From assembly GCA_965233585.1 (NCBI GenBank), contig CBDDTI010000745.1:288001-352000 (forward strand): DNA of 64,000 nucleotides, written 5' to 3'. The notes under the pieces were generated by a model, which saw only the letters and a program-made list of their open reading frames with translations, was not told the origin of the DNA and did not search any database. How positions within the stretch are numbered: position 1 is the first letter of the stretch; each line of letters begins with the position of its first letter. This DNA is from a bacterium (GTDB lineage Bacteria > SAR324 > NAC60-12). The position numbers and the translations under genes were made by a program. Shown one piece after another: positions 1 to 47,282 of the stretch.

Positions 1-186
1 GACGTCAAAGATGAACTGAAAGAAGACATTCAAAATGTCAGAGGTGAATTGAAAGAAGACATCTATTCTTTAAAAGGAGAGCAAAAACTCCTGAAATGGA
101 TGGTGGGTTTTGGCATTTCTTTAAATCTGGTGACGCTTGGAGTCGTATTAGCTTTTTTGTTTTCTTTTCTTCCTCCTGCCAAGTAA
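1..186 (+). CDS. DUF1640/CCDC90-like coiled-coil membrane-anchored protein, 3' part (runs off window start)
   Basis: Reads DVKDELKEDIQNVRGELKEDIYSLKGEQKLLKWMVGFGISLNLVTLGVVLAFLFSFLPPAK*, essentially identical to the end of 41970..42698. Confidence 0.85.
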   Translation, partial: DVKDELKEDIQNVRGELKEDIYSLKGEQKLLKWMVGFGISLNLVTLGVVLAFLFSFLPPAK

Positions 187-313: not shown

Positions 314-1085
314 GGAAGTGTTTACTTGATATTGTTGTGATATTTTTCAAATCTTTTGTAGTCAAAGAAGAGTTTGAGAGAGTGATGGAGCATGTGAAAA
401 GTTTTAGAATGTCGTTTAGATTTTCTCATGAAGCGAGCTAAGTGATCTCTGATAGAAGAGTTTGAAGATTCAATGAGATGAGTCTTGTCTTTGCCTATTT
501 CATGCTTCTCTGGAATTTGAAGTTGTGCAAATGCCACTTGATAGCAAGAATTCGCATCGGTGTAAATCGTCTCTATCCTAGGTCGCTGTTCTTTGACGAG
601 TGCATACAGCTTCTTGGCAGCTTCTAATCCTTTGCCTATCACAAAAGCAATCACGCATTGTTCTTGACGAGAATAAGCTGTCCAAACCGCTACTCTTTGG
701 CTTTTTTTGAACAAAAGTGTAGATTTCGTCCATCTCTATACTATCTACTTGCTCACGGAAACTGGGTGCGTCTTTTGGGAGTTGAGATACTCTGGCTTTT
801 TTGATCCAGTTGAGAACTGAAGCTGGAGGCACCTTGAGAAAACGAGCTATTTTTCTGATGCCTACGTTATTGACATACATTTCTAAGGCTTGACGCTTCG
901 TCTCTAGTGGGATTCTCAACCCATTTGAAGTGAATGCTCTCTGACATGACTTGCAACGAGACCTTTGAACTCCTTTGTAACTTCCATTCTTCGTATAAGT
1001 CTGACTCCCACAATGATGACAACTTCTCATATTCATTCCTCAAATTCGCTCTCACATGCAATGACAATACCAACTAAACACTGCC
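314..1085 (-). mobile_element. IS1-family insertion sequence, copy 1 (772 bp; slippery run A7, probably inactive)
   Basis: Terminal IRs GGAAGTGTTTACTTG / GGCAGTGTTTAGTTG; InsA-like ORF 578..1036 (Zn-ribbon CHHC..CKSC plus HTH) and InsB-like ORF 322..714 (DDE region: TDANSCY, IESSNSSIR). Confidence 0.9.
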
Positions 1086-1903: not shown

Positions 1904-4900
1904 CTACTGTGTTTTTGAGCCATAATACCACTCACGACCCAGACCATTGGAACCTGTGAAGTAAAGTTTTCCATCAACCCAGTATGGATTGGCAGTGTTC
2001 CAAGTTCCACCAGTGTTGACATTGACAAACTTATTCTTTGGCTTACCTTTCCAACCAACCAAGACTTTGACAGCACCTGATTCGGTTGTCACAGCAATCG
2101 CATCGGCAGTTCCCACTTTGATTTTCATGAGTCCTTGAACAGATTCCACACCAAGTTTTCTAGTAGAAGCAGAGGCTCTTACAGCAGTTCCATTGTCTCC
2201 ATCTACCCAATACAAAGCACCACCAGCAAGAGTGTAGTAATCATTACCAGATTTGACTGCTTTGTTGCCTTCTGCATCTAAATCCCATCCAACATGAACT
2301 TTGCTGCCATTAGCGGCAGTTTTAACAACTCGTTTGGTGGTCTCTGTTGTACCTTTAGTCAACCAAACTCCACCACCATCATGTGTGAAGAATAACACAT
2401 CTCCTGCAACAGCAAGGTTGGTTGGTGTGATTGATGCTTTGTCAACTGCTGCAAGATTACCATCTTTGGCAGCCTCTACCTCAATTTCTTTTCCAACGGG
2501 AGTGGCCGCAGAAGACACTGAGTACAGCTTGTCTGCTTTCACTGCAATCAACTGATTCCCTAGTGCATGAATGGCAGTGATGCTAGCAAGGTCAGCTGGA
2601 GTGTCTGCAGAATCTTTGACCTCCTCAAAGCCATCTGCAAAGCTTTTCACATACTTCACATTTCCACCATCAAGACCAAAAAGTTTGTTGTTCACCACAG
2701 TCAAGCTGGTCAAGTCTGCTTTTGCTGAACCAGCAACCATAGAAGTTGCAACAATTTCAACCTTTCCTGCACTATCGGTTGTAGAAAGAGTGGCATCAAA
2801 GGTGTAGGTTTGTTCTGAATTAGAGAAGTAAACATTGTTACCGCTCACAGTCAGAGACTTGACGTCCAAGTCTGCAACAGAACCTGCACTGTTTGAAGTG
2901 GCAATTTCTGTAACGCCTGCTCTGTCAAGCGCCCCGTGAACATACAACTTCTTGTCATAGCTGAAATACAAGTCATCTGAATGCACGGCATACTTGCCTG
3001 CTTCTATGGCAAATGAGTTGTTGTTTTCTACTGCAGGAGCGGCATCATCAGCATCGGCAGCACCTTCTGCAATGGCTAATTTGCTGTATTTTCCAGAATC
3101 ATCAGCCATATAAATTTTGTCATCAACTACTATGTAATCCGTATTGGCAGCATTCAATGAAGCATTACTTGTCAAAGTTCCAAAAACACTTTTGACAGCT
3201 CCTGCTTGGTCTATCCAATAGAGTTGGTCTGTATCTGCTGCGTCATAGAAATAAATACCATCTTTTGCTGCAACAAACTTTGTTGTTGTTGAAGCAGATG
3301 CTGCCAAGCCTGTCACTTCAGCAAAGTCATCAACTGTTGTTCCATCTGCCCAGAAAACTCCGTCTAACCATGTTGCACTTGCTTTGTTAACAGTGACAAT
3401 CAAGGTGTTACTTCCATCTGGAACTACCCCAATGATTTCACCAGCTACAGCACCTTTTAGGTCAATAGCAGATGTGTTTTCTAATTCAACAGTAGTACCG
3501 TCAGCTGATTTAACAAAGACAGCTTGGCTGGCACCATTTGCACCATCAATGACAAAAGCACCATCTTTTGCAACAAAAAGTTTTGTTGTTGCAGTGGCAA
3601 TAGCAGTATTTCCTCCATCTTGAGCAAAGTCAGCAGCTGTTGTTCCATCTGCCCAGTAAACTTTGTTTAACCATGTTGCATTTGCTTTGTTAACAGTGAC
3701 AATCAAGGTGTTACTTCCATCTGGAACTACCCCAATGATTTCAGCAGCTACAGCACCTTTTAGGTCAATAGCAGATGTGTTTTCTAATTCAACAGTAGTA
3801 CCGTCAGCTGATTTAACAAAGACAGCTTGGCTGGCACCATTTGCACCATCAATGACAAAAGCACCATCTTTTGCAGCAAAAAGTTTTGTTGTTGCAGTGG
3901 CAATAGCAGTATTTCCTCCATCTTGAGCAAAGTCAGTAGCTGTTGTTCCATCTGCCCAGTAAACTTTGTTTAACCATGTTGCCCCCGTTTTATTAACAGT
4001 GACAATCAAGGTGTTACTTCCATCTGGAACTACCCCAATGATTTCAGCAGCTACAGCACCTTTTAGGTCAATAGCAGATGTGTCTTCTAATTCAACAGTA
4101 GTACCGTCAGCTGATTTAACAAAGACAGCTTGGCTGGCACCATTTGCACCATCAATGACAAAAGCACCATCTTTTGCAGCAAAAAGTTTTGTTGTTGCAG
4201 TGGCAATAGCAGTACTTCCTCCATCTTGAGCAAAGTCAGCAGTTTTTGTTCCATCTGCCCAGTAAACTTTGTCTAACCATGTCGCCCCCGTTTCGTTGAC
4301 AGTCACAAACAGTGTGTTTTCCGCAACTGCTCCGATAAAGTCGCCTTCTACTGCTGCTGTTGTTCCAAAGCTTAAACCAGTTGCTTCTAAATCATTGACT
4401 GTGCCATCTTTGTTAAGAAAAACAACGGTGCCATTATCAGCTCCTGCAGCAGACTTAATCACAAAGAGACCGTCTTTAGCAGCGTAAGTGATAGTTGGTG
4501 TTGCAAGTGTTAAATCGTATTTCCTTGCAATTCCATCTTTAAGATAGAACCAATCTTCTCCTGAGTTGATGATGACATCACCATCAGTCGTTTTGTAGAA
4601 AGCGGTGATGGCTTCAGTGATTTCAGGGTGGAGTTGTGCCAGTTCTGTGACGTCAGCGCCTTTGACTTTGGCAACATTGCGTGCTGTGACATCCTTATTG
4701 TAGTTGAAGAACAAGCTGTCTGCTCCTGTGACTACTTTAGTAGGGGATGTGCTAGCATTATCACCGCTATCTGGCTTAGTACCGTTGAAATTTTCAGTGA
4801 AGTTATATTCAAAGGCATAGTCGCAGATGTATTGGACTTTGCTAGTGTCAATCTCTGTTCCGGCATCGTTGTAAACGCCTGTGATTTTGACACCACCAAA

Positions 4901-6647: not shown

Positions 6648-7420
6648 GGCAGTGTTCACTTGTTGTTGTTATTGCATGTGAGAGTAAATTTGAGGAATGA
6701 ATATGAGAAGTTGTCATCATTGTGGAAGTCAGAATGACATCAAGAATGGAAGTTGCAAAGGAGTGCAGAGATAGTCTTGCAAATCATGTGGGAGGTCGTT
6801 CAGTTCAAATGGTTTGAGAATCCCACTAGAGAACAAGCGTCAAGCCTTAGAGATGTATGTCAATAGTGTAGGCATCAGAAAGATAGCTCGTTTTGTGCAG
6901 GTGTCTCCAACTTCAGTTCTCAACTGGATCAAAAAAGCCAGAGTGTCTCAACTCCCAAAAGACGCACCAAATTTCCAAGAGCAAGTAGATAGTATAGAGA
7001 TGGATGAGATCTATACTTTTGTTCAAAAAAAAGTCAAAGAGTAGCCGTCTGGACAGCAGACTCTCGTAGGGAGCAATGTGTGATGGCCTTTGTGATAGGC
7101 AAAGGATTGGCAGCTGCGCGAAAGTTGTATGCACTAGTCAAAGAACAGCGACCTAGAATGAAGACGATCTATACCGATGCCAACTCATGCTATCAAGTCA
7201 CATTTGCTCAATTACAAATTCCAGAGAACCACGAAATAGGCAAGAGAAATACTCATCTCATGGAATCTTCTCATTCTTCCATCAGAGATCACCTAGCTCG
7301 TTTTATGAGAAAATCTAAACGACATTCTAAAACTTGGGACATGCTGGAACTCTCTCTCAAACTTTTCTTTGACTATAAAAGACTTGAAAAATATCATGCC
7401 AACACCAAGTGAACACTGCC
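6648..7420 (+). mobile_element. IS1-family insertion sequence, copy 2 (773 bp; nonsense codon in InsA)
   Basis: IRs GGCAGTGTTCACTTG..CAAGTGAACACTGCC; InsA interrupted by TAG after ..KGVQR; InsB 7080..7412. Confidence 0.9.
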
Positions 7421-29948: not shown

Positions 29949-30319
29949 GGGGGCGATACGGCTTCGACTGGAAGCGAAAGAAAAAGATGCAAGTCGCAGG
30001 TAATACTCTTGGCTGCGTAAAAAGGAGTATTGAAAATCTTAGCTGCAAACAACGCAGACTACACTCCAGCTGCAGCACTCGCTGCTTGAGCTAACGGAGC
30101 GGCTTCAGTGAGGCTTGCCTAAAACGTCATTGAAGTTGGAATACTAAGTTAGGCTGGCTTGATGTTGCCTTCCAGACATCAAGTGAGACTTTGGAAGTTT
30201 TCTAATAGACGGGAGTTTGCACCCAAATCTATCAGAGAAATTCAAAATGCAGACTAAACTTGTAGAATCTTTTTTGGAAACTCTTCAGGACGCGGGTTCA
30301 ACTCCCGCCGCCTCCACCA
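29949..30319 (+). ncRNA. ssrA: tmRNA (tag ANNADYTPAAALAA)
   Basis: 5' GGGGGCGA..GGCTTCGAC; 3' GACGCGGGTTCAACTCCCGCCGCCTCCACCA; acceptor stem with G3-U; internal tag GCA AAC AAC..CTC GCT GCT TGA. Confidence 0.96.
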
Positions 30320-40348: not shown

Positions 40349-41044
40349 TCAATCTTCTGCTTTCACCCCCTCCACAAATCTAATCTCCTCCTCACTTAAA
40401 CCATACAAAGCAAAAACCAGCTCATCTATTGCCTGCTCTTCTGTCGTCGTATCTTGTCCGTTTTGCTTTTTCTGTAAAATCATATCTACTAAATCGGTAA
40501 ACGGTTTTTGTTCTTCTTCTGTGAGTTCGGGAATGGGGATTTGTTCAACATACTGTTTTTTCCATTCAAAAGCATTGCCCAATGGAATACCTGATAATTG
40601 TCCAAAATACCAATTAAAAATTTTACTATTCATTTGACACAGTAAAAATTTGATATTGTGATTATTGCTAGTCATTAAATTTGATGGGGCATTTATAAAT
40701 ACCCCTTCTTTTCCATAAGAAAAATTCGCTTCATAATTTATATTTTCCCAAACAATTTTTGGTTTATAAAAATCGCTCCAATAACTTATGCTATCTTGTG
40801 TTTCAAACCATTGATTCGTTGTTTTCTTGCGTGTTCCTTTTTCTCCTATTTGGTGAAGTCTTTTCCCAAAACCTGCTAAATAATTTTTCAGTGCTGGGTA
40901 GTCATCAATATTTAAATTTAGAGCTGGGAAAGTCCCAATCACCCAAAGCCCCGCCCAATTTGCTTGATACTTTTTAATGTCCTTTCCTCTTAAAATGGGT
41001 TTGATGAGTGCTTTGGTTCGTTCGTATTCATTCCCCTCTAGTAG
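40349..41044 (-). pseudogene. C-terminal fragment of a type IIG/Eco57I-like restriction-modification enzyme (TaqI-C-like specificity region), truncated at IS1
   Basis: IKPILRGKDIKKY, YPALKNYL, WFETQD.I.YW.DF.KPKIVW, NSK.F.WY, IPIP, IDELVF.LYGLS.EEI; 5' part missing. Confidence 0.82.
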
Positions 41045-41817
41045 GGCAGTGTTCACTTGATATTGGCATTGCATGTGAGAGTGAATTTGAGGAGTGGAAA
41101 TGAGAAGTTGTCATCATTGTAGGAGTCAGACTTATATCAAGAATGGAAGTTACAAAGGGGTTCAGAGGTATCGTTGCAAGTCATGTCAGAGAGCATTCAC
41201 CTCAAATGGTTTGAGAATCCCACTAGAGACAAAGCGTCAAGCCTTAGAGATGTATGTCAATAGTGTAGGCATCAGAAAGATCGCTCGTTTTTTGCAGGTG
41301 TCTCCCGCTTCAATTGTCAACTGGATCAAAAAAGCTAGAGTGTCTCAACTTCCAAAAGACGCACCAAGTTTCCATGCACAAGTAGATAGTATAGAGATGG
41401 ATGAGATCTACACTTTTGTTCAAAAAAAAGCCAAAGAGTAGCTGTTTGGACAGCCTATTCTCGTCAAGAACAATGTGTGATTGCCTTTGTGATAGGCAAA
41501 GGATTAGCAGCAGCAAAGCAGCTGTATGGACTAGTCAAAGCACAACGAGCTAGAATTGAAACGATTTATACAGATGCCAACTCATGCTATCAAGTGGCAT
41601 TTGCACAACTCCAAATTCCACAAAAGCATCAGATAGGCAAGGACAACACTCATCTCATTGAATCTTCTAATTCTTCCATCAGAGATAACCTAGCTCGCTT
41701 GATGAGAAAATCTAAACGACATTCCAAAACTTTTGACATGCTGGAACACTCTCTACAACTCTTCTTTGACTATAAAAGGTTTGAAAAATATCATGACAAT
41801 ACCAAGTGAACACTGCC
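41045..41817 (+). mobile_element. IS1-family insertion sequence, copy 3 (773 bp, apparently intact)
   Basis: IRs GGCAGTGTTCACTTG; InsA 41094..41441; A8G slippery site; InsB frame to 41809. Confidence 0.93.
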
Positions 41818-41969
41818 TCTTGTCAGAGGGGAATTGAAACACTTTGCCTTTCGTCATTGCCACCTTGAGTGAGCAATCTCCTCTTTTCAGATTTCTCTCT
41901 TTTTTTATTTTTCCATTTTGTCTTTAAATTTGTTATGATTCTGGTTTTGACATTCTCACTTATCGGCTG

Positions 41970-42698
41970 ATGGAAACCGCATTACTTTTTGACACACTCA
42001 AGACTTCCAAACACTTGCAAGCTGCAGGCTTTGAACAAGAGCAAGCAGAGGCATTGACAGAAGAATTTAAATTTGTGGTAGAAAGCAACTTTGCGAAACT
42101 TTCTACCAAAGAGCAAGTTTCTGGTTTAGAGACAAGCCTTAATGAAAAACTGGAGCAAAAATCCACCAAAGAGCAAGTTTCTCACTTGCAAGAACAGCTT
42201 GAGCAGAAAACCACCAAAGAGCAAGTCTCTGGTTTAGAGACAAGCCTTAATGAAAAACTGGAGCAAAAAGCGACCAAAGACCAAGTGGCTAGTTTAGAGA
42301 CCAACCTTAATGGGAAAATCTCTAGTTTAGAGGAAGAACTGAAGCAAAAAGCCACCAAAGAAGACATTCAAAGTGTCAGAGATGAACTGAAAGGAGATAT
42401 TCAAAATGTCAGGGATGAAATCAAAGACGTCAAAGATGAATTGAAAGAAGACATTCAAAATGTCAGAGATGAACTGAAAGGAGACATTCAAAATGTCAGG
42501 GATGAAATCAAAGACGTCAAAGATGAATTGAAAGAAGACATTCAAAATGTCAGAGGTGAATTGAAAGAAGACATCTATTCTTTAAAAGGAGAGCAAAAAC
42601 TCCTGAAATGGATGGTGGGTTTTGGCATTTCTTTAAATCTGGTGACGCTTGGAGTCGTATTAGCTTTTTTGTTTTCTTTTCTTCCTCCTGCCAAGTAA
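41970..42698 (+). CDS. DUF1640/CCDC90-like coiled-coil protein (242 aa)
   Basis: Conserved head; modules 20-16-20-27 plus DIQNVRDE 11/18-aa repeats; LLKWMVG anchor. Confidence 0.87.
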   Translation: METALLFDTLKTSKHLQAAGFEQEQAEALTEEFKFVVESNFAKLSTKEQVSGLETSLNEKLEQKSTKEQVSHLQEQLEQKTTKEQVSGLETSLNEKLEQKATKDQVASLETNLNGKISSLEEELKQKATKEDIQSVRDELKGDIQNVRDEIKDVKDELKEDIQNVRDELKGDIQNVRDEIKDVKDELKEDIQNVRGELKEDIYSLKGEQKLLKWMVGFGISLNLVTLGVVLAFLFSFLPPAK

Positions 42699-42705
42699 AA
42701 ACCCT

Positions 42706-43000
42706 GTCATTGCTCACCTTGAGTGAGCAATCTCATTCTTCTTGGTTGAGATTCCGTGTCAAGTGCGGAATGACTAAGTTGACGTCATTGCTCATCTTGA
42801 CCTACAAGCTCTAAACAACCGTCATTGCCACCTTGAGTGAGCAATCTCATTCTTCTTGGTTGAGATTCCGCATCAAGTGCGGAATGACTACTATTGTCAT
42901 TCGGAGCGAAAGCAGGAATCTATCATCCAACTGCTGATGGATTCCGTGTCAAGCACGGAATGACTAAGTTGACGTCATTGCCACCTTGAGTGAGCAATCT
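42706..43000. repeat. Dense REP-like palindrome cluster between tandem paralogs
   Basis: At least 7 GTCATT..AATC(T) units in alternating orientation; 42821..43090 is nearly identical to 43719..43987. Confidence 0.85.
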
Positions 43001-43090
43001 CCTCTTTTCAGATTTCTCTCTTTTTTTATTTTTCCATTTTGTCTTTAAATTTGTTATGATTCTGGTTTTGACATTCTCACTTATCGGCTG

Positions 43091-43633
43091 ATGGAAACCG
43101 CATTACTTTTTGACACACTCAAGACCTCTAAACACTTGCAAGCTGCAGGCTTTGAACAAGAGCAAGCAGAGGCATTGACCGAAGAATTTAAATTTGTGGT
43201 AGAAAGCAACTTTGCAAAACTTTCTACCAAAGAGCAAGTTTCTGGTTTAGAGACAAGCCTTAATGAAAAACTGGAGCAAAAATCCACCAAAGAGCAAGTT
43301 TCTCACTTGCAAGAACAGCTTGAGCAGAAAGCCACTAAAGACCAAGTCTCTCACTTGCAAGAACAGCTTGAGCAGAAAGCCACTAAAGACCAAGTCTCTG
43401 GTTTAGAGACAAGCCTTAATGAAAAACTGGAGCAAAAAGCCACCAAAGAAGACATTCAAAATGTCAGAGATGAAATCAAAGACGTCAAAGATGAACTCAA
43501 AGAAGACATCTATTCTTTAAAAGGAGAGCAAAAACTCCTGAAATGGATGGTGGGTTTTGGCATTTCTTTAAATCTGGTGACGCTTGGAGTCGTATTAGCT
43601 TTTTTGTTTTCTTTTCTTCCTCCTGCCAAGTAA
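43091..43633 (+). CDS. DUF1640/CCDC90-like coiled-coil protein (180 aa)
   Basis: Conserved head; modules 20-16-16-20; LLKWMVG anchor. Confidence 0.87.
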   Translation: METALLFDTLKTSKHLQAAGFEQEQAEALTEEFKFVVESNFAKLSTKEQVSGLETSLNEKLEQKSTKEQVSHLQEQLEQKATKDQVSHLQEQLEQKATKDQVSGLETSLNEKLEQKATKEDIQNVRDEIKDVKDELKEDIYSLKGEQKLLKWMVGFGISLNLVTLGVVLAFLFSFLPPAK

Positions 43634-43640
43634 AAACTCT

Positions 43641-43898
43641 GTCATGGCTCACCTTGAGTGAGCAATCTCATTCTTCTTGGTTGAGATTCCGCATCAAGCA
43701 CGGAATGACTAAGTTGGCGTCATTGCCACCTTGAGTGAGCAATCTCATTCTTCTTTGTTGAGATTCCGCATCAAGTGCGGAATGACTACTATTGTCATTC
43801 GGAGCGAAAGCAGGAATCTATCATCCAACTGCTGATGGATTCCGTGTCAAGCACGGAATGACTAAGTTGACGTCATTGCCACCTTGAGTGAGCAATCT
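43641..43898. repeat. Dense REP-like palindrome cluster
   Basis: Same units and order as the 42706..43000 cluster. Confidence 0.85.
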
Positions 43899-43987
43899 CC
43901 TCTTTTCAGATTTCTCTCTTTTTTATTTTTCCATTTTGCCTTTAAATTTGTTATGATTCTGGATTTGGCATTCTCACTCATAGACTG

Positions 43988-44800
43988 ATGGAAACCGCAT
44001 TACTTTTTGACACACTCAAGACCTCTAAACACTTGCAAGCTGCAGGCTTTGAACAAGAGCAAGCAGAGGCATTGACCGAAGAATTTAAATTTGTTGTAGA
44101 AAGCAACTTTGCAAAGCTTTCTACCAAAGACCAAGTGGCTAGCTTAGAGGAGAAACTAGAGCAAAAAGCCACCAAAGAGCAGGTTGCTCACTTACAAGAA
44201 CAGCTAGAGCAAAAAGCGACCAAAGACCAAGTCTCTGGTTTAGAGACAAGCCTTAATGAAAAACTGGAGCAAAAAGCGACCAAAGACCAAGTGGCTAGTT
44301 TGGAGGAGAAACTGGAGCAAAAAGCGACCAAAGACCAAGTGGCTAGTTTAGAGACCAACCTTAATGGGAAAATCTCTAGTTTAGAGGAAGAACTGAAGCA
44401 GAAAGCGACCAAAGACCAAGTGGCTAGTTTAGAGACCAACCTTAATGGGAAAATCTCTAGTTTAGAGGAAGAACTGAAGCAGAAAGCGACCAAAGAACAA
44501 GTCTTTTACTTGCAAGAACAGCTTGAGCAAAAAGCGACCAAAGAACAGTTTGTTCACTTGCAAGAGCAGCTGGAGCAGAAAGCGACCAAAGAACAGGTTT
44601 CTAATTTAGAGACGAATCTTAATGAAAAAATGTCTCATTTGGAAACGAATCTTAATGAAAAAATGTCTCATTTGGAGACGAATGTTGACAACAAATTTAA
44701 ATTATTGTCATGGATGGTTGGTTTTGGCGTTTCTTTAAATCTGATGACACTTGGAGGCATGTTAGCCTTCTTGTTTTCTTTTCTTCCTCTTGTCAAATAA
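43988..44800 (+). CDS. DUF1640/CCDC90-like coiled-coil protein (270 aa)
   Basis: Conserved head; modules 16-16-20-16-27-27-16-16; KFKLLSWMVG anchor. Confidence 0.87.
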   Translation: METALLFDTLKTSKHLQAAGFEQEQAEALTEEFKFVVESNFAKLSTKDQVASLEEKLEQKATKEQVAHLQEQLEQKATKDQVSGLETSLNEKLEQKATKDQVASLEEKLEQKATKDQVASLETNLNGKISSLEEELKQKATKDQVASLETNLNGKISSLEEELKQKATKEQVFYLQEQLEQKATKEQFVHLQEQLEQKATKEQVSNLETNLNEKMSHLETNLNEKMSHLETNVDNKFKLLSWMVGFGVSLNLMTLGGMLAFLFSFLPLVK

Positions 44801-44815
44801 AACTCCCACATTGAA

Positions 44816-45589
44816 GGCAGTGTTCACTTGGTGTTGGCATGATATTTTTCAAGTCTTTTATAGTCAAAGAAGAGTTTGAGAGAGTGTTCCAGCATGTCCA
44901 AAGTTTTAGAATGTCGTTTAGATGTTCTCATCAAGCGAGCTAGGTTATCTCTGATGGAAGAATTAGAAGATTCAATGAGATGAGTATTTCTCTTGCCTAT
45001 TTCGTGGTTCTCTGGAATTTGTCATTGAGCAAATGCCACTTGATAGCATGAGTTGGCATCGGTATAGATTGTCTTCATTCTAGGTTGCTGTTCTTTGACT
45101 AGTGCATACAGCTTTTGGGCAGCTGCTAATCCTTTGCCTATCACAAAGGCAATCACACATGGCTCTTGAGGAGAGTCTGCTGTCCAAACAGCTACTCTTT
45201 GGCTTTTTTTTTGAACAAAAGTATAGATGTCATCCATCTCTATACTATCTACTTGTGCATGGAAACTTGCTGCTCCTTTTGGGAGTTGAGACACTCTGGC
45301 TTTTTTGATCCAGTTGAGAACAGAAGTTGGAGATACCTGCACAAAACGAGCTATCTTTCTGATGCCTACACGATTGACATACATTTCTAAGGCTTGACGC
45401 TTCGTCTCTAGTGGGATTCTCAAACCATTTGAACTGAACGACCTCCCACATGATTTGCAAACATATCTCTGCACTCCTTTGTAACTTCCATTCTTGATAT
45501 AATTCTGATTCCCACAATGATGACAATTTCTCATATTCATTCCTTAAATTCACTCTCACCTGCAATAACAACACCAAGTGAACACTGCC
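44816..45589 (-). mobile_element. IS1-family insertion sequence, copy 4 (774 bp; A9 in-frame fusion, premature stop; 9-bp TSD)
   Basis: IRs present; CACATTGAA at 44807-44815 and 45590-45598; fused ORF 45022..45540 ends early at TGA. Confidence 0.93.
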
Positions 45590-45616
45590 CACATTGAAAG
45601 GGTACACTGGTTTGTT

Positions 45617-45962
45617 GAGATTCTGTGTCAGGCACTACAATGACGGAAGGGTCATTGTGCATCTTCAAAATGGTCATTGCAGGCATTGAGTGAGCAGTTT
45701 CTCTTTTTTCCTAATTTCTTCATTTTCCTAAACGACTCTTGTTTTTTGAGATTCTGTGTCAAGTGCAGAATGACAGTCGTATAGAGATTGCGGGTCAAGG
45801 TAAGCCATGACGGTTTTCAAAGTGAGACATGACGAAAAAGCAAAGTGTTTCAATTCTCTCTGACAAGAGGAGTGTCCCAAAGGGACGGGGGTTTCAATTC
45901 CCCTCTCTTTTTTCTGTCACTTGAGTGACTCTTCTAGTCATGGAGTGCCTGACCCGCAATCT
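45617..45962. repeat. REP cluster (several degenerate GTCATT..AATCT units and one CCCCGTCCC..GGGACAC element)
   Basis: Units at about 45617, 45673, 45748, 45784 and 45937; GTTTCAATTCTCTCTGACAAGAGGAGTGTCCCAAAGGGACGGGG at about 45847. Confidence 0.7.
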
Positions 45963-45995
45963 CAAAGAAAATTAAGTTCCTTCAAGATAGAAACT

Positions 45996-46400
45996 TTATT
46001 TGGAGGCAGGAAGAAAAGAAAACAAGAAGGCTAACATGCCCCCAAGTGTCATCAGATTTAAAGAAACGCCAAAACCAACCATCCATGACAACAATTTAAA
46101 TTTGCTATCAATTTTCTCATTGAGGTTTGTCTCTAAACTAGCGACTTGTTCTTCGGTGGCTTTTTGTTCTAGCTGTTCTTGCAAATGAACAGACTGTTCT
46201 TTAGTGGCTTTTTGCTCCAGTTTTTCATTAAGGTTTATCTCTAAATTAGCGACTTGGTCTGTGGTAGAAAGTTTGGCAAAGTTGCTTTCTACCACAGATT
46301 TAAATTCTTCTGTCAATGCCTCTGCTTGCTCTTGTTCAAAGCCTGCAGCTTGCAAGTGTTTAGAAGTCTTGAGTGTGTCAAAAAGTAAAGCGGTTTCCAT
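45996..46400 (-). CDS. DUF1640/CCDC90-like coiled-coil protein (134 aa)
   Basis: Conserved head; modules 20-16; KFKLLSWMVG anchor. Confidence 0.87.
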   Translation of the reverse strand: METALLFDTLKTSKHLQAAGFEQEQAEALTEEFKSVVESNFAKLSTTDQVANLEINLNEKLEQKATKEQSVHLQEQLEQKATEEQVASLETNLNEKIDSKFKLLSWMVGFGVSLNLMTLGGMLAFLFSFLPASK

Positions 46401-46509
46401 CAGTCTATGCGTGGGAGTTTAAAACCAGAATCATAACAAATTTAAAGACAGAATGGAAAGAGAAAGGTCGTGACCACCGCGCTTGCTTGCGCAAGCCCCC
46501 TCCAATGGA

Positions 46510-47282
46510 GGCAGTGTTTAGTTGGTATTGTCATTGCATGTGAGAGTGAATTTGAGGAATGGAAATGAGAAGTTGTCATCATTGTGGGAGTCAGACTTAT
46601 ATCAAGAATGGAAGTTACAAAGGGGTTCAGAGGTATCGTTGCAAGTCATGTCAGAAAGCATTCACCTCAAATGGGTTGAGAATCCCACTAGAGACCAAGC
46701 GTCAAGCCTTAGAGATGTATGTCAATAGTGTAGGCATCAGAAAGATCGCTCGTTTTTTGCAGGTGTCTCCCGCTTCAATTGTCAACTGGATCAAAAAAGC
46801 TAGAGTGTCTCAACTTCCAAAAGACGCACCAAGTTTCCATGCACAAGTAGATAGTATAGAGATGGATGAGATCTACACTTTTGTTCAAAAAAAAGCCAAA
46901 GAGTAGCTGTTTGGACAGCCTATTCTCGTCAAGAACAATGTGTGATTGCCTTTGTGATAGGCAAAGGATTAGCAGCAGCAAAGCAGCTGTATGGACTAGT
47001 CAAAGCACAACGAGCTAGAATTGAAACGATTTATACAGATGCCAACTCATGCTATCAAGTGGCATTTGCACAACTCCAAATTCCACAAAAGCATCAGATA
47101 GGCAAGGACAACACTCATCTCATTGAATCTTCTAATTCTTCCATCAGAGATAACCTAGCTCGCTTGATGAGAAAATCTAAACGACATTCCAAAACTTTTG
47201 ACATGCTGGAACACTCTCTACAACTCTTCTTTGACTATAAAAGGTTTGAAAAATATCATGCCAATATCAAGTGAACACTGCC
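46510..47282 (+). mobile_element. IS1-family insertion sequence, copy 5 (773 bp, apparently intact)
   Basis: IRs GGCAGTGTTTAGTTG / CAAGTGAACACTGCC; InsA 46559..46906; A8G site; InsB to 47274; body nearly identical to copy 3. Confidence 0.93.

Follow-up and report, generated by a model that had tools for sequence, protein, structure and literature searches.

The DNA analysed here is a window of 64,000 bp (C745:288001-352000, on contig CBDDTI010000745.1 of assembly GCA_965233585.1, SAR324 lineage) from a 12-Mb bin. It harbours an expanded family of short DUF1640/CCDC90-like genes, four of which lie close together among repetitive extragenic palindromic (REP) elements and insertion sequences (ISs) of the IS1 family (Table 1). 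An earlier note, made from the letters of this stretch, had listed seven paralogs in the window, and all of them were located where it had placed them. The six complete ones (134-270 aa) are all in frame, and S or F at position 35 is the sole difference among their first 44 residues.

As for the assembly, 497 of the 747 contigs were examined (every one of at least 8 kb and a fifth of the remainder). Seven contigs (C747, C746, C745, C295, C729, C723 and C109) have a bacterial coding density of 0.79-0.90 and a common composition; these, 2.99 Mb in total and 92% complete, are treated as the bacterial genome throughout. Its enolase matched those of mixed phyla at only 52-61%. The remaining ~9 Mb of the bin, mainly low-coding DNA with many GIY-YIG matches, are probably eukaryotic contamination.

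The gene family and its predicted topology

A tblastn search of the whole bin with the 44-aa head revealed 17 copies at 93-100% identity, distributed over six of the seven bacterial contigs. Sixteen are intact (126-270 aa), and the remaining copy carries a stop codon and a frameshift. When a hidden Markov model (HMM) of the head was applied to the bacterial contigs (~3.0 Mb), 34 DUF1640-like open reading frames (ORFs) of several subfamilies were detected, some of the other subfamilies forming tandem arrays of their own without repeats. Broken members occur at C747:227023 and C746:324007, and a headless tail at C747:~444290. Close relatives of the subfamily are few (13 matches, the nine best being apparently the present genome's own); distant relatives of the family amount to 1266 representatives at E<=0.001.

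The assignment to DUF1640/CCDC90 was borne out, as PF07798 and a profile match to human CCDC90B (6H9M) agree. Gene 1 scored 50.3 bits against PF07798 (cut-off 33.5), while the five other window genes, whose head is the same, stayed below the cut-off at 17.6-29.7 bits; among the top Atlas matches, PF07798 is found in 10-56% of members. The family profile aligned to positions 19-109 of 6H9M (E 1.8e-8), covering FDT..GF..QAE, and matched 6H9L too. Shared with the family (PF07798; MCUR1, CCDC90B, yeast Put6/Put7, 6H9L) are the FDT...L..AGF...QAE head, the ATK-type neck, the coiled-coil stalk and the single C-terminal anchor. The present set differs in its 17 near-identical heads, its 34 members in ~3 Mb, its stacked beta-layer modules, the lack of a targeting peptide and the flanking repeats. 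No bacterial paralog expansion of DUF1640 was described in the titles and abstracts of the open papers found, subscription papers and supplements lying outside the search.

The beta-layer motif at the start of stalks is given as [aliphatic]-A-T-K-[polar]-[DE] in PMC4786415. In our set, the neck motif LSTKEQ, LSTKDQ or LATKEQ follows the head in 16/17 copies, gene 4 having LSTTDQ, and it recurs in every module. All 16 intact genes end in a hydrophobic anchor (peak 19-residue hydropathy 1.8-2.3, versus at most 0.26 at the N-terminus). A monomer model of gene 4 (predicted local distance difference test, pLDDT, 93; predicted template modelling score, pTM, 0.47) contains helices 9-18 and 23-43, a break at 44-46 and a helix 47-128, which we read as a two-helix head, an LST neck break and one long helix running into the anchor; the beta-layer of the neck is not in view in this model, which is a monomer. 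Three chains are present in each of 6H9L and 6H9M, and DUF1640/CCDC90-like proteins reportedly form a parallel trimer (Adlakha et al. 2019).

According to hydropathy, the 16 intact copies possess neither an export signal nor an N-terminal hydrophobic stretch, and in all of them 2-3 lysine or arginine residues precede the anchor and 0-1 follow it. From the missing export signal, the one C-terminal anchor and this positive-inside bias, the rods are predicted to be inner-membrane tethers with the head in the cytoplasm. Yeast orthologues are matrix-facing and part of a large complex (PMC7519068).

The conserved block noticed upstream of the genes proved to be general: a -10-like hexamer is situated 29-30 nt before the ATG in 17/17 copies (TATGAT in 16, TACGAT in one). 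As the promoter scan by itself was not significant (8 sites versus 6.2 +/- 2.6), the block is called promoter-like for its positional conservation. Both the block and the start codon are kept in all 17 head copies, with no Shine-Dalgarno-like motif. Genes 1-3 had been described as units of REP cluster, promoter and gene with near-identical spacers of ~270 bp. This holds for genes 2 and 3, while gene 1 is preceded by one REP; about 270 bp are indeed common to both spacers, whose full lengths are 392 and 354 bp.

Table 1. Tandem locus and further family-related features, in window coordinates
Feature	Position	Strand	Remarks
IS1-family element, 773 bp, two frames of insA/insB type	41045..41817	+	9-mers at the two ends do not form a target duplication; both frames hit NF033558, under the curated cut-off in each case
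Single CGTC-type REP hairpin 5' of gene 1	41853..41878	+	pattern matches
Gene 1 promoter-like block, TTTCCA-18-TGnTATGAT	41910..41939	+	function inferred from conservation
Gene 1, DUF1640/CCDC90-like, 242 aa	41970..42698	+	modules 20-16-20-27, then 11/18-residue repeats, K-type anchor
REP cluster, 8 elements, first hairpin terminator-like	42706..42999	.	pattern matches, folding
Gene 2 promoter-like block	43031..43060	+	conservation
Gene 2, 180 aa	43091..43633	+	promoter and anchor as in gene 1; sequence comparison
REP cluster, 7 elements	43641..43897	.	~270 bp common to first spacer; pattern matches, alignment
Gene 3 promoter-like block	43928..43957	+	conservation
Gene 3, 270 aa	43988..44800	+	modules 16-16-20-16-27-27-16-16, S-type anchor near that of gene 4; sequence comparison
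IS1-family element, simple insertion	44816..45589	-	9-bp target duplication; element ends
REP cluster, 3 elements	45750..45961	.	sequence unchanged in runs X1, X2, X4
Gene 4, 134 aa	45996..46400	-	S-type anchor; ORF, monomer model
Gene 4 promoter-like block	46430..46459	-	conservation
IS1-family element	46510..47282	+	left end toward gene 4; element ends
3' end of a complete 211-aa paralog	1..186	+	start 449 bp before window
IS1-family element	314..1085	-	element match
Paralog, 139 aa	1285..1704	-	ORF, shared head
Paralog, 251 aa	5782..6537	-	ORF, shared head
IS1-family element, right border of possible 8.8-kb composite	6648..7420	+	element ends

Selection, stalk modules and mosaic genes

Among the heads, 38 silent versus 8 replacement alleles were counted, at 29 and 109 sites, respectively (proportion of silent differences, pS, 0.31; of replacement differences, pN, 0.014; pN/pS 0.045). 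This low ratio indicates conservation of the head by selection, beyond what recent copying would leave. The anchors are less constrained (pS 0.36, pN 0.08, pN/pS 0.225). Between the ATK-like motifs of the stalks, all 56 modules measure 16, 20 or 27 aa, i.e. heptads plus 2 or 6 residues, a spacing that forms beta-layers (PMC4786415); the K-type genes contain additional 11- and 18-residue repeats. Since the repeat units are whole modules, slippage is expected to leave the copies in frame, and no special mechanism is needed.

That the genes are mosaics was supported by conflicting trees, shared modules and patterns of silent alleles. The 5' tree and the anchor tree are each rejected by the other region (approximately unbiased test, p 1.6e-5 and 6e-4; 0/250 column permutations). 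Gene 2 combines the promoter and anchor of gene 1 with the silent alleles of gene 3 at head codons 12, 13, 30 and 42, likely a conversion tract. The gene 3 head differs from that of gene 2 by 2 nt in 138, and its anchor from that of gene 4 by 2 nt in 72, the anchors of genes 1 and 3 being 87% alike; two modules of gene 3 differ from the 27-aa module of gene 1 by 1 nt in 81. Behind another head subfamily, the K-type anchor occurs again at 79-82% identity. Several mosaic breakpoints fall inside genes. Judged from these sequence patterns, gene conversion among the copies is likely; RecA and ComEC are intact.

CGTC-type palindromes and IS1 elements

On the bacterial contigs, four palindrome patterns gave 490, 378, 264 and 355 matches, as opposed to 0, 0, 0 and 8 in one shuffle, which confirms that the palindromes are real. 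They amount to ~702 REP elements in 182 clusters and are characterized by a CGTC/TGTC tag, a stem beginning with AT and a 5-nt loop containing TTGA. Of six stretches that were folded, two single elements formed hairpins of 8 and 9 bp with loops of 5 nt (z -4.5 and -4.2), the others being weaker. For the CGTC-type REP superfamily, which includes dRS3, a CGTC/TGTC tag, an 8-9-bp stem starting with AT and a 4-5-nt loop are described (PMC3733652); the suggested kinship to dRS3 holds in that both are of the CGTC type.

The enrichment of REPs near the paralogs was likewise confirmed, 15/17 having one within 300 bp; the corresponding share is 7.9% among 2421 other genes and 16% among 687 that stand alone. 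REPs also flank 7/17 of the other DUF1640-like genes, 34/41 members of a lipoprotein-like set (an approximate figure, since single linkage put at least one stray, C746:761186, into the set), and 11/11 and 8/9 members of two coiled-coil families. More generally, 85/194 non-transposase multi-copy genes are REP-flanked versus 123/2233 single-copy genes, and only 13 of the 78 large REP clusters lie near any DUF1640 gene. The link between REPs and DUF1640 is not specific to this family.

The claim that REPs act as recombination joints is suggestive only. In 12/22 cases a shared flank stops within or at a REP, against a background of ~25% (5/13 upstream and 7/9 downstream, versus 23-26%), but pairs were counted twice and REP similarity itself attracts alignment ends. 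The same count in two other REP-flanked families gave 7/21 and 0/13, with no replication. REPs may serve as crossover sites, though not specifically for DUF1640. The terminator-like hairpin 3' of gene 1 provides a second reason for the presence of repeats downstream of the genes.

Two of the other REP-flanked groups deserve mention. The lipoprotein-like set (C747:982000-995000 and ~40 genes genome-wide) is large and modular, with shared N-terminal parts, exchangeable C-terminal domains (Kelch in one scanned) and REP clusters mostly downstream; it is a better candidate than DUF1640 for surface diversification. The coiled-coil families (11 and 9 genes; C746:88540-93393 and other loci) have a PD-(D/E)XK-like end. 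Five of their genes stand in tandem with REP spacers, and four times they adjoin a DUF1640 copy.

In the window, every paralog locus carries an IS1 element, as had been stated; genome-wide, an IS1 within 1 kb was found for 7/17 genes and 4/13 loci. Altogether 35 IS1 matches were detected on five contigs, 23 of them with a REP within 150 bp. The trinucleotide CCC occurs 9-15 bp outside the element (-15..-9) at 48/59 classified ends versus a background of 3%, so the presence of IS1 at paralog loci partly reflects target choice. The bias takes the form CCCC-N9, and in some insertions the duplicated 9 bp are those that open a CGTC repeat. The accessible part of PMC1525189 names five REP-targeting families, IS3, IS110, IS4, IS256 and IS5, and IS1 is not one of them; nor did we find a description of a REP-targeting IS1 in the open literature, subscription papers and supplements being outside the search. 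At least two IS families with 30-44 ORFs are present in the genome.

One paralog is carried by a 2.5-kb composite (C295:355-2896) of IS1 end, gene and IS1 with a 9-bp target duplication, its left IS being a 302-bp remnant. The flanks rejoin in one frame (115+118 open codons) with a weak adenine methylase match; a REP hairpin apparently lies inside the frame of this split methylase-like gene, whose two parts occupy 1-354 and 2897-3249 on either side of the composite. No empty-site joint was present among the 12 joints listed, and the junction pieces contained 28-29 letters of the IS end, below the 31 needed for bridging. IS-bounded cargo and an 8-9-bp duplication are features that such composites share with known IS1 composites and REP-targeting ISs. 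On weaker evidence, an 8.8-kb unit, starting 1373 bp before the window and ending at 7420, is a possible IS1 composite: outward-facing IS1 ends with a common A/T-rich 8-mer enclose three paralogs together with a lipoprotein-like gene of 1085 aa. Furthermore, a 47-kb segment (C745:287400-334509, ending at window position 46509) lies between two inward-facing IS1 left ends and has an identical 9-mer at both of its own ends. This suggests a trace of inside-end transposition, with two paralogs once forming a divergent pair, but the reading is ambiguous because the 9-mer is repeated elsewhere.

Origin and role of the expansion

A selected modular expansion in repeat-rich DNA is real. With a probability of roughly 0.58, we consider the 17 copies to be tail-anchored coiled-coil rods, predicted to face the cytoplasm, that spread by ordinary recombination and IS1 carriage with no dedicated switching; such generic processes are the most likely drivers of the expansion. 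The best reading is birth-and-death amplification and gene conversion of a cytoplasm-facing membrane tether, similar to Bdr of Borrelia. Unequal crossover between direct-repeat spacers or genes would produce the tandem copies; the dispersed ones would stem from IS1 composite transposition and from recombination of one repeat cluster with another, and stalk modules would be exchanged and multiplied through RecA-type gene conversion and through slippage at ATK motifs. In this picture the rod would be a trimeric tether: its constant head would bind a single conserved partner in the cytoplasm and keep it ~8-30 nm off the inner membrane (at 0.15 nm per residue), and selection would maintain the head, the anchor and the dosage while allowing stalk length to vary.

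Several results weigh against this account. The tree conflict fades at third positions alone (p 0.10), a test similar to the pairwise homoplasy index reached p 0.04 for the full alignment and 0.13-0.32 for four sub-sets of it, and the high silent divergence leaves room for homoplasy. In addition, REP enrichment counted by locus (11/13 versus 16%, binomial 1e-7) exceeds what a pure bystander model needs, from which it follows that the repeats may be active joints.

By analogy, the closest working parallel is Bdr (PFam80), rather than pilin or Vls variation. The Bdr proteins are multi-copy inner-membrane proteins of variable repeat number, reassorted by homologous recombination, with no change seen in culture (PMC3303823, PMC4370689). 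They differ in being encoded on cp32 and linear plasmids and in having KID repeats, whereas the present genes carry ATKEQ and IQNVRDELKED repeats and reside on large contigs beside CGTC repeats and IS1. KID/KIE repeats as in Bdr are absent from our set, KID occurring once before some S-type anchors, and the likeness is drawn from published descriptions.

The earlier note had read the REP clusters and identical heads as recombination or gene-conversion joints that yield a repertoire of stalk lengths, as is proposed for the dRS3/NIME arrays around Neisseria surface genes; in its full form this would be a dedicated system of programmed joints and a selected repertoire. The proximity of 15/17 genes to REPs, the flanks ending at REPs, the CGTC type shared with dRS3 and the intact ComEC and RecA speak for it, yet we consider it unlikely. 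Variation of the vls or pilS type relies on silent promoterless cassettes, one expression locus, an exposed diversifying tip and high-frequency switching. Among the 17 head copies, no silent promoterless cassette was detected (there are two orphan tail/stalk fragments only), nor did the frame of any of the 17 copies, or the 62 bp before it, contain a slippery tract (homopolymer of >=7 A/T or >=6 G/C), the frame of the broken copy being checked only to its first stop. The invariant distal head is predicted to be cytoplasmic, and an immune-selected antigen would show the opposite of a constant tip on a variable stalk; the rod is therefore probably not a switching surface antigen.

Nor was a candidate enzyme detected. 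A single PF01541 match was present on the seven bacterial contigs of this 92%-complete genome, in a 648-aa frame; four Ssn-like proteins of a genome from the same family (G015) yielded no tblastn match at E<=0.05 (best HMM E 0.75), and no RAYT gene was found on the bacterial contigs. The SRM motif had 6 matches versus 3 and 6 in two shuffles. The likeness to dRS3/NTS and SsnA of Neisseria lies in the CGTC tag, the 8-9-bp stem and clusters beside variable envelope genes (PMC3733652, PMC11893778). The present repeats differ in their 5-nt TTGA loop, the lack of an SRM fit and the absence of a detected Ssn gene, and the gene they flank is predicted to face the cytoplasm with a constant tip.

In favour of programmed joints, short GIY-YIG (Ssn-like) genes lie between or beside related SRM repeats in G015; of 15 loci checked in three genomes, nine show this arrangement, every one of them in G015, which would fit a mobile repeat-nuclease unit. 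On the other hand, PF07798 was detected in 19/64 genomes of the order; G022 has 12 matches, G037 has 8 and G009 has 6, and G022 and G037 contain 0 of the present repeats. Relatives therefore expand DUF1640 without these repeats, and the G022 copies, too, have common heads and variable stalks. Likewise, 0/44 ORFs listed from 47 relative loci have a REP within 300 bp, many being near contig ends and only this repeat type being sought. The limited share of large REP clusters near DUF1640 also argues against a dedicated system, as does the identity of the pieces recovered from a second sample. This strain comparison used short-read contigs from low-depth runs of two samples of one study; run X5 (share 0.12), with mainly IS and REP pieces in common, was left out. 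Pieces of the gene 3 stalk, the gene 4 end and both C295 junctions were unchanged in runs of the two samples.

Equally unlikely in our view is a combined scenario, in which dRS3-like palindromes orphaned of their enzyme, together with IS1 homing to CCCC-N9 sites in their clusters, make up a genome-wide assembly kit by which all flanked families (lipoproteins, coiled-coil nucleases and DUF1640) are copied and recombined, and the DUF1640 proteins are selected 8-30-nm rulers that space one conserved partner off the inner membrane in graded steps. Quite unlikely, too, is that the rods are accessory anchors for neighbouring coiled-coil PD-(D/E)XK-like nucleases or lipoprotein cassettes, co-amplified with them and perhaps anti-phage. 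Four copies do adjoin the 11-member coiled-coil family (C723, C729, C746:87695, C747:908105), whose C-terminal part resembles DUF8196/DUF3782/PD-(D/E)XK clusters (Atlas 0.91-0.94, a lead); PMC4786415 ties DUF3782 and DUF1640 through the ATK motif, and other DUF1640 subfamilies alternate with lipoprotein genes. However, genes 1-4 have no such neighbour, adjacency is expected from common REP-rich sites, and the stalk sequences of both families are visibly different.

That the rods are exported or surface-exposed and act on a eukaryotic host, for example by mimicking MCUR1/CCDC90B, is improbable. A host-associated cell would fit the ~9 Mb of mostly low-coding DNA in the bin, the head shares homology with CCDC90B, and a DUF1640 protein of Borrelia miyamotoi is listed in an immunoproteomic table (PMC6856195); against this, there is no signal peptide, the positive-inside bias predicts a cytoplasmic N-terminus, and the family is common within the order and beyond. 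Very improbably, the copies are neutral or selfish clutter, recent and unselected in junk-rich islands: the broken members, the headless tail and the abundant IS families would fit, but not the excess of silent alleles in the heads or the 16/17 copies intact despite a pS of 0.3. Least credible is that the tandem triplet is an assembly artefact; no short-read contig of the sample runs spans it, but exact matches between units reach at most 152 bp, the gene 3 stalk pieces and the end from IS through REP to gene 4 are unchanged in both samples, and 13 further copies exist outside the locus.

The 17 natural length variants with one conserved head offer a series for questions of partner and stalk length in the bacterial MCUR1/CCDC90 family. 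The Neisseria pattern of CGTC clusters beside expanding families extends to a further bacterium, one that yielded no Ssn enzyme, and one copy has been moved by an IS1 whose target bias is unusual. A new switching system is not shown, and similar DUF1640 expansions occur in relatives.

Some minor features remain. A fragment with a TaqI_C domain, from a restriction-modification gene, occupies 40349-41074 on the minus strand, its 5' end overlapped by the IS1 at 41045, and the IS1 flank there recurs at C295:136191. CRISPR-like arrays at C745:87810-90696, C745:391544-404687 and C109:17417-20257 comprise ~260 repeats ending TAATTTCTACTGTTGTAGAT, which presumably resemble Cas12a repeats. The sole match of an Rfam scan of the window was a transfer-messenger RNA (tmRNA) gene at 29949-30319 on the plus strand.

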